From a virus (lineage: Duplodnaviria; Heunggongvirae; Uroviricota; Caudoviricetes): 64,000 nt of DNA. Shown here piece by piece: positions 45,170-48,591 of this stretch. The notes beneath the pieces were generated by a model. The model had not been told where the DNA came from. It ran no database searches and worked only from the letters and a program-made list of their open reading frames with translations. Made by a program: the position numbers and the translations under genes. How positions within the stretch are numbered: position 1 is the stretch's first letter; each line of letters opens with the position of its first letter. The stretch lies in the IMG/VR virus record IMGVR_UViG_3300050821_010409, positions 30,160 to 94,159 of that record; one strand, written 5' to 3'.

Positions 45170-45211
45170 GCCGTCGGGGCTGTGCCGGGGCCGTGGAGTA
45201 GCTAAGTGGCG

Positions 45212-45241
45212 CACTATAGAAGTCTCTTATAGTATTGTTGC
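45212..45241 (+). promoter_or_regulatory. leaderless promoter motif upstream of the cas12-like gene (GTCTCTTATAGTAT..)
   Basis: Same AT-rich motif as at 20207, 24084 and 15975; -10-like TAGTAT lies 6 nt before the ATG. Confidence 0.45.
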
Positions 45242-46828
45242 ATGCTCACCAGCCGGAATTTCACCTTTGAGGCGTACCCGCGCCACGACCAGCTCGATGC
45301 CTGGCGGAGGCAGTTCGCGGGAACCCGGCACGCCTGGAACCTGGCAGTGCGCGCCTGCCGGGACGCAGACGAGCACAACGCCGCGCGCAGGAAGGAAGGA
45401 CTGGACCCGGAGTACCCGCTGTCCGCGGCAACGTTCAGCTACGCCTGGCTCAAGGAGCAGGCAGTTGCGGCAGGCCCGCTGACCAGCCGCGAGGGACGTG
45501 AGTACTTCCCCCTGGAAGAGATGCCATACCAGTCGGCCCTGCTGTACGTGGCCAAGCGCGCGTCTGCCGCTTACCGGAACGTCGTGGGCAAGCGGGCAGC
45601 TGGCGAGCCGGCAACGCTGCGGTTCCGGTCCTGGCGGGATGACCAGTCATGCACGTGGCAAGAGCAGTGCGGGAAGGCTCGCGCCACTGCCAAGGACGAC
45701 AGCGAGCGGTACGTGGCCCGGCTCACGCCAGGCGGCGCTCCCTGCAAGAGGAAGAAGGACGACCCGGCCGGCCGGTGGAAGCAGGGCGACCCGGTGATCA
45801 AGGACACGGGCGCGGCGAACTGGAAGGCGTTCCCTGACGACCTGATCACGGTTACCAGCCCGCTGACGGGCCGCGGGAAGGCCTGGGCGCTGCTGCGCGT
45901 GCCCGCCAGGCTCGGGGGAAGCCTGCGGATCAGGCTGCACCGGCAGCTGCCGCCCGGCAGCAGGGTGGACACGGTGACCGTGCGGTACCGTGCCGCAGAT
46001 GGCACGTGGCACGCCACGCTCAACATCACCTTCAGTGATGAGCACCTAGAGAAGGCCGCTGCCTCGGGTGCCATCGCCGCTGACCCCGGCGTCACGTCCT
46101 CGGCGATGTTCGTCGCTGGCCTGCCTGCGCAGGGGCACGCGAACGGCGCCCCGGAAGCCCGGTACTGGGAATACGCCCGGCGCGCCTTGTCCGGGCCGGA
46201 GCAGGCGCGGGAACTGCGGCTGCGGCAGCGCATCGCCGCCATCAGGATGAGGTACTGCCCGTGCCTGGACGAGGCAGGGAAGATGGCCAGGGGGTGCCGC
46301 ACGCCAGGTCATGATGGCTGGAAGAGCGACCCGGAACGGCAGCAGCTGAAGCGGAACCTCGGCAGGCTACTGCAGCGGGCCACCGACCGGGCTGTCAACG
46401 ACGAGCGCGAGATCGCCCGGCGCCATGCCCGCCAGTACGCGGAACTGTACATGGGAGACGGCGGCGGGCTCAGCCGGGCACGCCGGGCCAAGGCCCCAGA
46501 TAATCGGGAGGAGGGGAAGAACTACGGCGTCGCCGGGCACACTGCCATGAACAGGCTCAACCGGGAAGCGCGCTGGGCGGAACTAGCCCGGCGGCACGCG
46601 GATGCCGGGATGCGGGTGATCATGGTAGACGAGCGCAACACGTCACGGACCTGCTCGGCATGCAGGCACATGCATGCCGAGCACGAGTACGCTGCCGCCA
46701 GGCCCGGCCGGGGCAAGCGGTGGACCTGCGCCAGCTGCGGGTTCCGGGCCGACGCCGATGCCAACGCAGGCTGGAACATCATGCGCCGCGGTCGCGAGCG
46801 CCCCGGTGGTGAGCTCACCTCCGGGTAG
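45242..46828 (+). CDS. cas12: TnpB-like / compact Cas12 RNA-guided nuclease (type V effector, 528 aa)
   Basis: N-terminal FTFEAYPRHDQL..FAGTRHAWNLAV (TnpB HTH-like). RuvC-I AIAADPGVTSSAMF; putative RuvC-II in YAELYMGD. VIMVDERNTSRTCSACRH..WTCASCGFRADADANAGWNI is the Zn ribbon plus RuvC-III DADANA signature. Sits immediately upstream of a 22-repeat CRISPR array. Confidence 0.75.
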   Translation: MLTSRNFTFEAYPRHDQLDAWRRQFAGTRHAWNLAVRACRDADEHNAARRKEGLDPEYPLSAATFSYAWLKEQAVAAGPLTSREGREYFPLEEMPYQSALLYVAKRASAAYRNVVGKRAAGEPATLRFRSWRDDQSCTWQEQCGKARATAKDDSERYVARLTPGGAPCKRKKDDPAGRWKQGDPVIKDTGAANWKAFPDDLITVTSPLTGRGKAWALLRVPARLGGSLRIRLHRQLPPGSRVDTVTVRYRAADGTWHATLNITFSDEHLEKAAASGAIAADPGVTSSAMFVAGLPAQGHANGAPEARYWEYARRALSGPEQARELRLRQRIAAIRMRYCPCLDEAGKMARGCRTPGHDGWKSDPERQQLKRNLGRLLQRATDRAVNDEREIARRHARQYAELYMGDGGGLSRARRAKAPDNREEGKNYGVAGHTAMNRLNREARWAELARRHADAGMRVIMVDERNTSRTCSACRHMHAEHEYAAARPGRGKRWTCASCGFRADADANAGWNIMRRGRERPGGELTSG

Positions 46829-46960
46829 CGCTCGCACGCTGGCCAGTGCGCCATTACCGAAAACTAAACAGGGAAAAAGCGCTCGTCAGGGGCTGCCGGA
46901 ACGGCACTGCTCGCACGGCGTCAAGAAATACCAGGCCAGGGCCGGGAAAAAGGGCAAGCC
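46829..46960 (+). promoter_or_regulatory. putative CRISPR leader (AT-richer than its surroundings)
   Basis: Contains AAAACTAAACAGGGAAAAAGCG and GGGAAAAAGGG tracts in a ~70% GC context, directly 5' of the first repeat. Confidence 0.4.
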
Positions 46961-48512
46961 CTGGCAATGCCTGCGCAGAGGCAAGAGAACTGCGACACAT
47001 CAGCAGGTATCTCGACGCCATTCAGTACGGCGCTGGCAATGCCTGCGCAGAGGCAAGAGAACTGCGACTCCTGCCGTCTCAGTCGCCGGGCCGGCGTTTC
47101 CAGGCGCTGGCAATGCCTGCGCAGAGGCAAGAGAACTGCGACTGCTTCGGTCTGCATGGAAATCAGAGATATCCCGCCCTGGCAATGCCTGCGCAGAGGC
47201 AAGAGAACTGCGACTGTGGGCGCGGGCGATGGCCGCCCGGAGCTACGTGCCTGGCAATGCCTGCGCAGAGGCAAGAGAACTGCGACCTGGTTCCACAGGG
47301 CCAGCAGGGCCGGCCACGACCACTGGCAATGCCTGCGCAGAGGCAAGAGAACTGCGACTGCGGAGAGGACGATCACGCCCCATTTGGTCTCGCCGCTGGC
47401 AATGCCTGCGCAGAGGCAAGAGAACTGCGACGCCTGGCACCGCCGGAAGCGGGACTCGGGCACGGCGCTGGCAATGCCTGCGCAGAGGCAAGAGAACTGC
47501 GACACCACGTACCCCAACGTCGCGAGCTACCTGTTTTCGCTGGCAATGCCTGCGCAGAGGCAAGAGAACTGCGACCTGCGGGTGGCAGAGGAAAGCGTGC
47601 CCTACCAGACCTGGCAATGCCTGCGCAGAGGCAAGAGAACTGCGACCTGGGAGTCCCCCAGCGTCGTGAGCGCACGATCGTCCTGGCAATGCCTGCGCAG
47701 AGGCAAGAGAACTGCGACCGGGAGTTCCCGGAGCGGGCCGCCGCTGAGGCTGGCTGGCAATGCCTGCGCAGAGGCAAGAGAACTGCGACGGCGGGCCGCC
47801 AGCACGAACGGGGGCAACGGCAACGGCGCTGGCAATGCCTGCGCAGAGGCAAGAGAACTGCGACACGGCCGATGGCTACGTGATCCGGGCCCAGCGGGGG
47901 CTGGCAATGCCTGCGCAGAGGCAAGAGAACTGCGACCTGGTTCCACAGGGCCAGCAGGGCCGGCCACGACCACTGGCAATGCCTGCGCAGAGGCAAGAGA
48001 ACTGCGACCGCGAGGGCTGGATCGAGCACGGCTGGTGCCTGGATGCTGGCAATGCCTGCGCAGAGGCAAGAGAACTGCGACCAGCCGTCCACGATCGGGC
48101 CGCTGCTGGCTGACGGTCTGGCAATGCCTGCGCAGAGGCAAGAGAACTGCGACAGGTTCCAGCGGCTTTCCCTGCCGCCCCGCCTGAGTCTGGCAATGCC
48201 TGCGCAGAGGCAAGAGAACTGCGACATGCTGGCAACCGGGATCAGCCCGCGCCGCGTCGCGCTGGCAATGCCTGCGCAGAGGCAAGAGAACTGCGGCCTC
48301 AGTGGCGTACAGGCGCCAGGGACCGCGCCAGCGCTGGCAATGCCTGCGCAGAGGCAAGAGAACTGCGACACGCCTCCCTTAGGCGAAAAGGCCGGACACG
48401 GCAGCTGGCAATGCCTGCGCAGAGGCAAGAGAACTGCGACCTTGACGGCCTGCCCGACCTTCACGACGGCAGCTGCCTGGCAATGCCTGCGCAGAGGCAA
48501 GAGAACTGCGAC
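46961..48512 (+). CRISPR. CRISPR array: 22 x 36-bp repeats (CTGGCAATGCCTGCGCAGAGGCAAGAGAACTGCGAC), 21 spacers of 35-39 bp
   Basis: Repeat and spacer boundaries were mapped by hand. Spacers are unique except that spacer 5 (47287-47322) equals spacer 14 (47937-47972). Repeat 19 has one 3' mismatch. A 3' hairpin CGCAG-N11-CUGCG is possible. Confidence 0.92.
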
Positions 48513-48591
48513 CGGCGGGACTGAAAACCGGCCTGGGGAACCTTGCCGAACGCCTTGCACAGCGCCATGCAAGGCGAGTAGCGTCGCCCCC

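Follow-up and report, generated by a model that had tools for sequence, protein, structure and literature searches.

Cas12n effectors (type V-N, formerly V-U4, c2c9), which include RdCas12n (PDB 9J09) and AcCas12n, recognize an A-rich 5′-AAN PAM, and the catalytic residues of RdCas12n are D287, E386, and D484. Their tracrRNA is encoded where the 3′ end of the effector ORF precedes the array, and the coding region of the disordered C-terminal tail overlaps it. Other compact type V systems are carried by phages, and a role in conflicts between mobile elements has been proposed for them. In some TnpB clades (Altae-Tran et al., 2023; PMC10691335), a glycine in place of the RuvC-II glutamate goes together with a glutamate on β5, a rearrangement of the site that has been interpreted as active. 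Repeat units outside arrays have also been described. The Racrs of viruses mimic host repeats and, according to their description, occur without associated cas genes (Camara-Wilpert et al., 2023; PMC10651486), and elements of the CreR/CreA type are found in or beside the cas locus, with a spacer that partly matches a cas or toxin promoter (Shmakov et al., 2023). A compact phage-borne CRISPR nuclease with its array is an already known kind of thing. The unusual part of the phage genome presented here is the presence of at least 11 single copies of its own CRISPR repeat scattered among its other genes.

The window, that is, the whole stretch of 64,000 nucleotides that was analyzed, belongs to the genome of a large virus (at least 155 kb) in a setting of high-GC soil-type bacteria (Table 1). 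The primase-polymerase shares 41% identity with its counterpart in the Actinoplanes phage phiAsp2, and this kinship with actinophage polymerases makes Actinobacteria the likely host group. Tail and lysis genes are present upstream of the locus in the Pfam gene tables, in keeping with the phage-like genome context noted in the first-pass annotation. Inspection of these precomputed tables from 6.7 kb upstream of the window to 9.9 kb downstream revealed no cas1, cas2, or cas4 adaptation genes and no TnpA or Y1 transposase, as had also been noted. The CRISPR locus is identical in four to five samples, and other samples of the phage are 99%–100% identical. We consider it probable, jointly with the rest of the explanation given below, that the virus, an actinobacteriophage, encodes a genuine type V CRISPR-Cas locus that lacks adaptation genes; the earlier description of a phage-borne locus, in which a compact TnpB-like effector is followed by a leader and an array, is supported by the fold of the effector, the phage context, and the array-linked relatives.

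Table 1. Coordinates of the CRISPR locus, the promoter motif, and the solitary repeats in the window
Feature	Position	Strand	Details
Two decayed repeat-like copies	14567..14646	-	47-bp tandem duplication; E = 1.9e-4 and 0.09; co-oriented with minus-strand genes; GTG start 5 nt past end of second copy
Solitary repeat	17309..17344	+	Core identical; intergenic; abuts ATG of 607-aa intein-containing ORF
Solitary repeat	19299..19334	+	1 mismatch; 3′ end of + transcription unit, before convergent gene; in frame within tail of called 63-aa ORF
Solitary repeat	22942..22977	-	3 mismatches, all in 5′ 6 nt; in frame in 636-aa minus-strand ORF; at 5′ edge of ~130-aa insertion relative to paralog, ATG directly after
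Solitary repeat	28023..28058	+	2 mismatches; intergenic, 21 nt past SNF2 helicase stop codon
Solitary repeat	35469..35504	+	2 mismatches; inside called 53-aa ORF
Solitary repeat	36742..36777	+	6 mismatches; ATG in frame with downstream ORF that has a coding-type codon bias (GC3 0.90)
Solitary repeat	40207..40242	+	1 mismatch; intergenic, 10 nt past last gene of + unit, before convergent gene
Solitary repeat	43121..43156	+	4 mismatches; intergenic, between hairpin 3′ of methyltransferase gene and -10-like TAGGAT of next gene
Phage promoter motif GTCTCTTATAGTAT	45222..45235	+	6 nt before cas12 ATG
Cas12n-like (TnpB-fold) effector gene	45242..46828	+	ATG start, 528 aa
Decayed in-frame repeat copy inside cas12 ORF	46115..46150	+	25/36 identical; encodes AGLPAQGHANGA
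Leader/candidate tracr-like region	46829..46960	+	132 bp
CRISPR array	46961..48512	+	22 x 36-bp repeats, 21 spacers (20 unique)
Decayed solitary repeat	53597..53632	+	10 mismatches, E = 0.003; just 3′ of HTH gene that comes after polymerase gene

The cas12 ORF shows a strong coding bias (GC3 0.86) and is unbroken through its 528 codons. Profile and structure searches of the protein, the check proposed for it at first pass, support a TnpB/Cas12 fold. Pfam Cas12f1-like_TNB (PF07282) matches at 5.7e-15, above its cut-off, and an AlphaFold model of moderate quality (pLDDT 63) matched the structures of TnpB, Cas12m2, and Cas12f in Foldseek at 1e-12 to 1e-10, the matches to CasPhi and Caslambda being far weaker than those to TnpB, Cas12m, and Cas12f. 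The RuvC fold is TnpB-like and holds a zinc-ribbon/TNB insert, which is the makeup of a type V effector. D281 of RuvC-I (AIAADPGV), D506 of RuvC-III (DADANAG), and the zinc-ribbon cysteines C471/C474/C496/C499 are all present and invariant in homolog alignments, which bears out the TnpB/Cas12 architecture attributed to this ORF. The PADLOC Cas12f model matches the effector at 2e-20. Membership in the curated Cas12f (V-F) models was rejected: the NCBIfam Cas12f2 score is 35.7 bits against a cut-off of 450, and the Cas12f matches in the PDB span only the C-terminal 60–70 residues. The locus might also be read as an IS200/IS605-type TnpB transposon beside an unrelated tandem satellite, since HTH_OrfB_IS605 matches weakly (E = 4.8e-4) and a TnpB family scores below its cut-off. 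This reading is hardly credible and is already contradicted by the scores (NCBIfam guided_TnpB, 59 bits versus a cut-off of 100; IS200_TnpB, 34 versus 425), by the gene tables, in which no TnpA appears, and by the presence of an array in place of a single omega RNA. Nor is the array a chance satellite, because homologous proteins in five other viral contigs, also of phages, carry homologous arrays with different spacers.

The closest array-linked relatives (L006–L010) are encoded on these five IMG/VR phage contigs, in each of which an array starts 110–270 bp after the gene. The repeats of the relatives and that of the window have the 5′ CTGGCAA and 3′ TGCGAC ends in common. The relatives match PADLOC Cas12u4 at 1e-34 to 1e-40 (116–136 bits), and the effector alone matches it weakly (32 bits). 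When the family profile was compared with the PDB, RdCas12n was the best match (2e-37), with an AI-designed nuclease second (9e-24) and a value of 3e-20 for ISDra2 TnpB; the effector alone gave no match to 9J09 at E ≤ 1. At the level of sequence profiles, these comparisons place the effector, as a highly divergent member, in a lineage that is carried by phages and related to Cas12n; it is not a free-standing new subtype, as had been suggested when it was described as possibly an uncharacterized compact one. Its divergence far exceeds that of the relatives. Alignment revealed three private insertions, one of which, lacking in the homologs, contains the decayed repeat copy of the cas12 ORF; the minus strand of this copy is the strongest anti-repeat of the locus. 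A C-terminal tail of the Cas12n type, kept by all relatives (present in P0002, P0003, L006, L007, and L010), is missing: the ORF ends at a TAG just before the RSHAGQ motif, and remnants of the tail follow, with a second stop codon. The loss of the tail and the three insertions could be a sign of decay.

The canonical D/E/D of Cas12n was looked for in the effector and not found, and the first-pass assignment of a probable RuvC-II glutamate had to be revised: Gly405 occupies the place aligned to E386 of RdCas12n, where the five closest relatives retain VVxED. Glu464 is found on β5, the strand after the canonical RuvC-II strand. The covariation of the two positions was followed over 98 homologs. 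Gly at RuvC-II was paired with Glu at β5 in 11 of 11 sequences, the effector included, and Glu at RuvC-II with a residue other than Glu at β5 in 83 sequences (Pro or Ala in 81 of these); none of the 98 had both glutamates or neither. It is likely from this covariation that E464 is the catalytic RuvC-II glutamate and compensates for Gly405. The same rearrangement has already been described for some TnpB clades, and the effector has therefore probably remained a nuclease. Segment-wise BLAST did not support descent from the RIIr clades: the N-terminal and middle segments of the effector matched the Cas12n-like relatives P0002/P0003 best and no segment, the stretch from RuvC-II to β5 included, had a Gly-type sequence as its best match. 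Since RuvC-III moreover reads DADxN, not xRDxx, the G405/E464 rearrangement looks independent.

The same features could be taken to mean that the effector, decaying or exapted, has lost nuclease activity and binds DNA under RNA guidance in the manner of Cas12m, Cas12k, or TldR, silencing its targets without cutting them, with the array and the solitary repeats serving regulation. Gly405 alongside the VVxED of the five closest relatives, a conserved tail cut off by two stop codons, private insertions of which one is repeat-derived, and the lack of new spacers across samples are all consistent with such a protein. We nevertheless consider it quite unlikely, as Glu464 is at the position that bears Glu in 11 of 11 Gly-type homologs, the G/E configuration has been interpreted as an active rearranged site in published work (PMC10691335), D281, D506, and the zinc ribbon are intact, and the strong coding bias extends over an unbroken ORF.

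The array consists of the repeat CTGGCAATGCCTGCGCAGAGGCAAGAGAACTGCGAC, identical in 21 of the 22 copies (the copy at 48262 has one mismatch), and of spacers of 35–39 bp. The number of repeats and the spacer lengths are as first reported, but not all spacers are unique, as had been claimed: the spacer at 47287–47322 is the same as that at 47937–47972, which leaves 20 unique spacers. The leader corresponds to the AT-richer gap of about 130 bp recognized earlier, with a GC content of 62% compared to 69.5% for the window. It contains remnants of the coding sequence of the relatives' C-terminal tail, broken by TAG and TAA, and the DNA motifs GCGCTCGCA, GCTCGCA, and GAAAAAG..AGCC, which are common to the relatives. 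In each of the four systems examined, duplexes between the repeat and the sequence upstream of the array did not surpass those of shuffled controls; in the absence of a significant anti-repeat, the assignment of a tracrRNA is by analogy with Cas12n. A search of the spacers for targets and a PAM, likewise proposed at first pass, yielded no protospacer for any spacer and hence neither from this source. No sign of recent spacer gain was seen, and the leader-end spacers are the same in all samples. Both results, like the weak profile match of the effector alone, its lost tail and private insertions, and the missing anti-repeat, count against a working system.

The motif GTCTCTTATAGTAT is present in five copies at ≤1 mismatch in the window (15976+, 20208+, 24085+, 41188-, and 45222+), against a chance expectation of 0.23 matches counted at up to 3 mismatches, so that a promoter motif common to cas12 and other phage genes, proposed in the first-pass annotation, holds. 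A similar motif precedes the L007 homolog. Because the motif lies 6 nt upstream of the ATG, cas12 would be transcribed from this phage-specific promoter as a leaderless mRNA. Between cas12 and the array, the + strand showed nothing that resembles a terminator, and therefore one transcript probably covers the gene, the tracr-like leader, and the array. The repeat-spacer units would then be processed to guides made of the 3′ part of the repeat followed by the spacer, and these may lead the effector to matching DNA, most likely that of competing mobile elements or of the host.

Outside the array, 11 solitary copies of the repeat with 0–6 mismatches were found in the phage genome, where 0 are expected, plus about four decayed ones. 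Eight of the 11 are in the window, the contig with the upstream copies being part of the same genome, and together they are spread over ~90 kb. The 3′ 30 nt are conserved and the 5′ 6 nt vary freely; the stem is preserved through a U-G change, and the last 7 nt are invariant. The copies at 35469 and 28023 have 15 extra upstream bases in common. Most of the copies are at gene boundaries. All 11 are co-oriented with their flanking genes (p about 5e-4), three abut an ATG (p about 6e-4), and four of the eight in the window are intergenic compared with 9% non-coding sequence (p about 0.004). The solitary repeats, the most unusual feature of this genome, are absent from the first-pass annotation.

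The reading that we favor is that the solitary repeats are RNA-level sites used by the phage's own Cas12. Within transcripts, the copies would be handles that this Cas12 machinery recognizes, whether a tracrRNA takes part or not, and may mark phage mRNAs for processing or stabilization; alternatively, they may turn the adjacent phage sequence into extra guides. In a specific form of the latter, a solitary repeat and the phage sequence after it would direct cutting of related phages that lack the insertion, resulting in exclusion or homing-like spread, with the phage's own genome spared because the repeat occupies the PAM position, much as TnpB guides serve transposons. One repeat would suffice, since type V guides have their targeting part 3′ of the repeat. 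In favor of this form, the transcribed strand is the one that carries the copies, several of which coincide with the first codons of genes; an inserted block has its edge at the 22942 copy, and the TnpB ancestry of the effector is clear. Against these points, no motif that might act as a PAM is common to the upstream flanks, and several copies are followed by non-coding sequence at unit ends. The near-identity of the samples and the lack of synteny with the relatives leave no related genome without the copies at hand for comparison. Overall, this form of the extra-guide proposal appears rather improbable. Weighing against any function of the solitary repeats, the sequences downstream of the copies have no second match, not even a partial one, in ~100 kb of the genome, and the relatives carry no such copies within 10 kb.

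Decoys for a foreign Cas12 are a very doubtful explanation. The solitary copies would then be RNA anti-CRISPRs (Racrs) that absorb a related Cas12, be it from the host or from a phage in competition, as solitary repeat units of viruses are known to do (PMC10651486), and Cas12n systems do occur in Actinobacteria, the likely host group. The sole cognate system found is, however, the phage's own, and such decoys would compete with its guides; cas12 and the array are in the same genome, which does not agree with the definition of a Racr as a host-repeat mimic on an element without cognate cas genes. The repeat core had no exact match in the metagenome collection or in 185,579 GTDB species genomes, plasmids and isolate phages matched the full repeat in BLAST only at chance level, and no solitary copy is found next to, or just after, any of the five copies of GTCTCTTATAGTAT.

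Bacterial REP elements are short hairpins at gene ends, co-oriented with genes. The solitary copies resemble them in all these respects and might be neutral or selfish dispersed sequences (REP/MITE-like hairpins), spread by recombination or a transposase, with no role for Cas12. Compared with the relatives, which have none within 10 kb, only this lineage carries them, and the existence of about four decayed copies indicates that some may be neutral. Overall, we find this reading unlikely: neither a Y1 transposase nor TnpA is listed in the gene tables, 11 copies have a near-identical core with the 5′ 6 nt free, the invariant last 7 nt correspond to the pseudoknot end in Cas12n guide RNA, and orientation and placement are strongly non-random.

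Among known systems, Cas12n is the best PDB match of the family profile. Cas12n and the effector are both compact, monomer-sized TnpB-like proteins of about 500 aa in high-GC, Actinobacteria-associated settings, and they also have in common a conserved region that runs over the 3′ end of the ORF immediately ahead of the array. The invariant 3′ end of the window repeat is reminiscent of the pseudoknot-forming bases -4 to -2 of the Cas12n guide. In contrast to Cas12n, which is found on bacterial chromosomes, the window locus and its relatives are phage encoded; the effector alone misses 9J09, its RuvC-II glutamate is relocated (G405/E464), its C-terminal tail is lost, and no anti-repeat was detected at the locus. 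A comparable layout, with a single small RuvC effector and an array in a large phage genome without Cas1, Cas2, or Cas4, is seen in Cas12j (CasPhi), Cas12l (Caslambda), Cas12r of Thermus Lalka phages, and the V-U-like effectors of landfill phages. The effector of the window is from a lineage different from all of these, and the papers on phage systems consulted for this comparison describe no dispersed cognate solitary repeats. The RIIr-5 TnpB/Cas12 clades (Altae-Tran et al., 2023; PMC10691335) likewise have Gly for the RuvC-II glutamate and Glu on the next β strand, and RuvC-I of the effector reads DPG as in most Gly-type sequences; the effector differs from them in having no Gly-type best-matching segment and in its RuvC-III motif.

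The solitary repeats have two counterparts. Standalone repeats and mini-arrays giving cr-like RNAs of the CreR/CreA type (Shmakov et al., 2023) are also repeat units outside an array that could load the effector, whereas the copies in this phage are dispersed over tens of kilobases (the ~90 kb given above) and have no partial second match. Racrs (Camara-Wilpert et al., 2023) similarly consist of one CRISPR repeat each, located in a viral genome but not in an array, and keep the repeat structure. Unlike Racrs, at least 11 copies in the present phage match its own array, and they are placed within transcription units and partly in ORFs.

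The locus consists of a 528-aa effector gene, an AT-richer leader and a CRISPR array, and all of these features lie where the first-pass annotation had placed them (see the table). The array had also been described as one of unique spacers. The repeat number and spacer lengths agree with this description, but spacers 5 and 14 are the same sequence, leaving 20 unique spacers. Two neighbouring spacers are identical in the array of L007, one of five IMG/VR phage contigs (L006–L010, here called the relatives) that encode array-linked homologs. No terminator-like site was found on the plus strand between cas12 and the array. 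Cas1, Cas2, Cas4 and Y1 transposase are absent from the precomputed Pfam tables, which cover the window together with 6.7 kb of upstream and 9.9 kb of downstream sequence, in keeping with the earlier view that the locus has neither adaptation genes nor TnpA.

Features of the phage type V locus and its surroundings (window coordinates unless a contig is named)
Feature	Position	Strand	Details
Effector ORF (cas12)	45242-46828	+	528 aa
Leader			132 bp between ORF and array; 62% GC, window 69.5%
CRISPR array	46961-48512		22 copies of CTGGCAATGCCTGCGCAGAGGCAAGAGAACTGCGAC: 21 identical, 1 with a single mismatch
Spacers			n = 21, 35-39 bp each
Spacers 5 and 14	47287-47322, 47937-47972		same sequence
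GTCTCTTATAGTAT copies	15976, 20208, 24085, 41188(-), 45222		a few bases ahead of start codons
Near-perfect solitary repeats	17309, 19299, 28023, 35469, 36742, 40207, 43121, 22942 (minus strand)		far from the array
Decayed repeats	14567-14646 (two), 46115-46150, 53597		from profile search; the two at 14567-14646 form a 47-bp tandem
Shared bases upstream of two solitary repeats	28008-28022, 35454-35468		15 identical bases (cgcgccaggttcagg)
607-aa ORF	17345-19168	+	right after a solitary repeat
Two adjacent paralogous HTH genes	21571-24059	-	longer one has an in-frame insertion
CAGCCAGCC-type motifs, dense	~24300-24520, 25700-26100, 26380-26570, 53630-53700; L094 14000-15650		intergenic/low-complexity
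RecD-like SF1 helicase	43682-45169	+	immediately upstream of cas12
21-bp tandem repeat	51570-51626		perfect, 2.7 copies; encodes PHVPLQP
L007 identical neighbouring spacers	11159-11265		within the L007 array
L007 GTCTCTTATAGTAT-like motif	~9270-9292		ahead of cas12 homolog
L004 array	8769-9719		sample ERZ27253725

The end of the promoter motif GTCTCTTATAGTAT lies 6 nt before the cas12 ATG. The window contains five copies of the motif that have no more than one mismatch, against 0.23 matches expected at up to three mismatches, and its repetition upstream of other phage units indicates that the cas12 promoter is shared with them, as the annotation had proposed. Transcription from this promoter should yield a leaderless mRNA. 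A near-identical motif precedes the cas12 homolog of L007, which is otherwise nonsyntenic with the window; the likeness hints at a common phage group or transcription system.

The phage-like character ascribed to the surrounding genome is borne out by its gene content. The primase-polymerase encoded downstream (1490 aa) shares 41% identity with the enzyme of Actinoplanes phage phiAsp2 and is akin to those of Streptomyces phages, and tail, tape-measure-sized and lysis genes are found upstream. The same sequence was assembled from several samples at 99%–100% identity, the longest contig (ERZ27253555:k141_2898272, 129,861 bp) being broken within the array, and the joined contig pieces give a phage genome of at least 155 kb. 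Rfam and tRNA scans gave no matches. The RecD-like helicase next to cas12 matches the PADLOC type IV-D CRISPR RecD model (6e-20) and candidate defence helicases; no equivalent stands beside cas12 in the relatives, and the adjacency may be a coincidence. The primase-polymerase ORF contains the 21-bp tandem repeat, which is one unit shorter in L003, a copy of the window sequence from another sample.

Profile and structure searches agree with the assignment of the effector to the TnpB/Cas12 fold. Pfam reports a Cas12f1-like TNB domain (5.7e-15) and a weak match to the IS605 OrfB helix-turn-helix, and the AlphaFold model (pLDDT 63) resembles ISDra2 TnpB, Cas12m2 and Cas12f. Scores against the NCBIfam TnpB and Cas12f models are far below the cut-offs. 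A word-indexed search of 5.8 billion proteins for close homologs recovered the window protein itself alone; run with a profile, this search yielded one further protein, an unrelated TnpB. When 1.84 billion representatives were searched exhaustively with HMMER, one relative was found at 3e-21 and another at 3e-11, the remaining matches being confined to the C-terminal RuvC/zinc-ribbon part. A profile search of IMG/VR identified the five relatives (63–210 kb), in each of which an array follows the homolog by 110–270 bp. Their repeats are homologous to that of the window, with common 5′ CTGGCAA and 3′ TGCGAC, and both sides of the central stem covary between window and relatives. A chance satellite next to a TnpB-like gene is thus excluded, since homologous repeats accompany homologs in all five contigs. 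The relatives match the PADLOC Cas12u4 (V-U4) model at 1e-34 to 1e-40 and the window protein at 1e-8; against the PDB, the family profile finds RdCas12n (9J09) with an E-value of 2e-37, a better match than ISDra2 TnpB (3e-20). Judged by these matches, the lineage is Cas12n-like, with the window protein as its most diverged member, and the locus takes this lineage into large actinophages. The earlier suggestion of an uncharacterised compact subtype is therefore retained as to compactness and strong divergence but not as to a lineage of its own. Synteny between the window and the relatives, sought for empty insertion sites, was not found.

The catalytic D/E/D set expected of the effector is present only in part at its canonical positions. 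The alignments show no variation at D281 (RuvC-I), at D506 (RuvC-III) or at the four cysteines of the zinc ribbon. Where the five relatives have VVxED, aligned to E386 of RdCas12n, the window sequence is LYMGD, and Gly405 takes the place of the RuvC-II glutamate. TnpB clades are known in which this Glu-to-Gly change is offset by a glutamate on the next strand (PMC10691335). The residue at RuvC-II was therefore tabulated against that on the following strand (the β5 position) across 98 homologs aligned with MAFFT. The 83 sequences with Glu at RuvC-II all have a residue other than Glu at β5, which is Pro or Ala in 81, and Gly at RuvC-II is paired with a β5 Glu in 11 of 11, including the window protein (VDE464RNTS). 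A twelfth sequence, in which MAFFT misaligned RuvC-II, also has the β5 Glu, and no sequence has both glutamates or neither. This covariation counters the nuclease-dead effector that Gly405 had suggested, and the enzyme probably retains an active, rearranged RuvC site. Segment by segment, the best matches of the window protein never have a Gly-type sequence on top, so the switch looks like an independent event. A relocated glutamate of apparently independent origin within a CRISPR-associated lineage offers a natural test of whether this configuration cuts DNA.

The C-terminus differs from that of the relatives, all of which have a basic tail, RSxAGx...NLIPxxWGRPxARxR, reaching up to the array. 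The window ORF stops at a TAG exactly ahead of RSHAGQ, and remnants of the tail go on in frame with a second stop within them; several DNA motifs of this tail/leader stretch are still common to window and relatives. In Cas12n the tracrRNA overlaps this 3′ end of the coding sequence, and its 5′ region base-pairs with the terminal bases of the repeat, which makes the window leader a candidate tracr region. In all four systems compared, shuffled repeats formed duplexes with the upstream sequence as strong as those of the real repeat, and the folding energy of the repeat alone equals that of shuffled sequence, giving no sign of a stable hairpin. The strongest anti-repeat in the locus is the reverse strand of the decayed repeat copy inside cas12.

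The search for spacer targets and a PAM, proposed in the first-pass annotation, was unproductive. The spacers had no matches among INPHARED isolate phages, in the window itself or in 1.3 Mb of fetched loci, and a single marginal one among PLSDB plasmids (E = 0.4); three spacer 22-mers were also searched for in IMG/VR, the JGI metagenomes and the GTDB genomes, none of which contained an exact match. Leader-end spacers are identical in other samples, and there is no sign of recent spacer acquisition across samples, as expected without adaptation genes. The array of L004, another copy of the window sequence, lacks spacers 7–15 and includes a chimeric spacer of 28 nt, which reflects either a deletion mediated by the repeats or a collapse during assembly.

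Single copies of the array's repeat are dispersed through the phage genome, and none is expected in shuffled sequence. In addition to the eight near-perfect copies in the window, three are found on an IMG/VR contig, giving 11 clear copies in all. This contig does not represent a second phage with solitary repeats: it shares a protein with the 129,861-bp contig, whose fetched stretch adjoins the window start, and so belongs to the same genome. In these 11, conservation extends over the 3′ 30 nt, with no change at all in the final 7 nt, and the first 6 nt at the 5′ end are free to vary. An A-to-G change leaves the GCCU/AGGC stem intact as a U-G pair, and the stem also withstands a 2-nt insertion in the loop. 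All 11 copies have the orientation of the genes on either side (p about 5e-4). Of the eight copies in the window, four fall entirely between genes, although coding sequence makes up 91% of the region (p about 0.004), and several copies lie at transcription-unit ends. An ATG directly follows 3 of the 11 (p about 6e-4), and ORFs that pass through or start at a copy all use one frame, ATG-CCT-GCG. The copy at 22942 marks exactly the start of a ∼130-aa insertion in the longer of the two paralogous HTH genes, and the decayed copy at 46115 is in frame within cas12, inside an insertion that homologs lack. Solitary copies were not found in the relatives within 10 kb; metagenome and genome collections contain no exact match to the repeat core, and the BLAST matches of the full repeat in plasmids and isolate phages were at chance level only.

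Several features adjoin these copies. Those at 28023 and 35469 have in common both the upstream bases cgcgccaggttcagg and two substitutions in the core; a duplication that covered more than the repeat probably produced one from the other. The 607-aa ORF has, by eye, an N-terminal D..(D/E)xK-like nuclease pattern, together with weak LAGLIDADG_3 and intein-splicing matches, and is probably an intein-containing nuclease; it was considered as a Cas4, for which it has no Pfam or PADLOC match. Several stretches rich in CAGCCAGCC-type motifs also adjoin solitary repeats, and these motifs could be protein-binding iterons.

Strand bias, placement and conservation of the guide-proximal part point to a function of the solitary repeats in RNA, linked to the phage's own effector. 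Four roles were ranked. Placed first, the copies would serve as RNA handles through which phage mRNAs are processed or stabilised. A neutral, REP-like spread comes second, self-derived guides against relatives lacking the insertion third, and decoys last. A regulatory cr-like RNA role was rejected, the sequences after the copies having no second match in the genome either as full-length pseudo-spacers or as 11–14-nt seeds. The repeat as a general start-codon donor for processed leaderless mRNAs was also dropped, because long ORFs occur at some copies only, with 12–25-aa peptides at others, and because Cas12n crRNAs keep only ∼20 nt of the repeat. We tentatively raise the broader, rather doubtful proposal that the repeat is a genome-wide cis element, whose transcript-embedded solitary copies the phage Cas12 would bind or cut, whether or not a tracrRNA takes part. 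The outcome would be control over the processing, stability or translation of phage mRNAs, or else self-derived guides that exclude or convert related phages without the insertion. In either case the virus would be applying a CRISPR effector to its own transcriptome, beyond interference alone. If the effector does use the solitary repeats, CRISPR RNA recognition would take part in the expression of viral genes or in gene drive between phages.

The locus is a true type V system, encoded by a phage and lacking adaptation genes, in itself an already familiar kind. Phage-encoded miniature type V systems are a main source of compact genome editors and also illuminate the evolution from TnpB to Cas12. 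What distinguishes this one is its Cas12n-like ancestry in actinophages, a catalytic glutamate that seems to have been relocated independently and, most of all, the scatter of cognate repeats, a rare case of a mobile element that combines a CRISPR effector with many solitary copies of its own repeat. Two kinds of isolated repeat have been described in known systems. Racrs, the solitary repeats of viruses, imitate the repeats of the host and are reported to occur without associated cas genes (PMC10651486), and cr-like regulatory mini-arrays lie beside a cas locus and match a promoter; the solitary repeats of this phage fit neither description.
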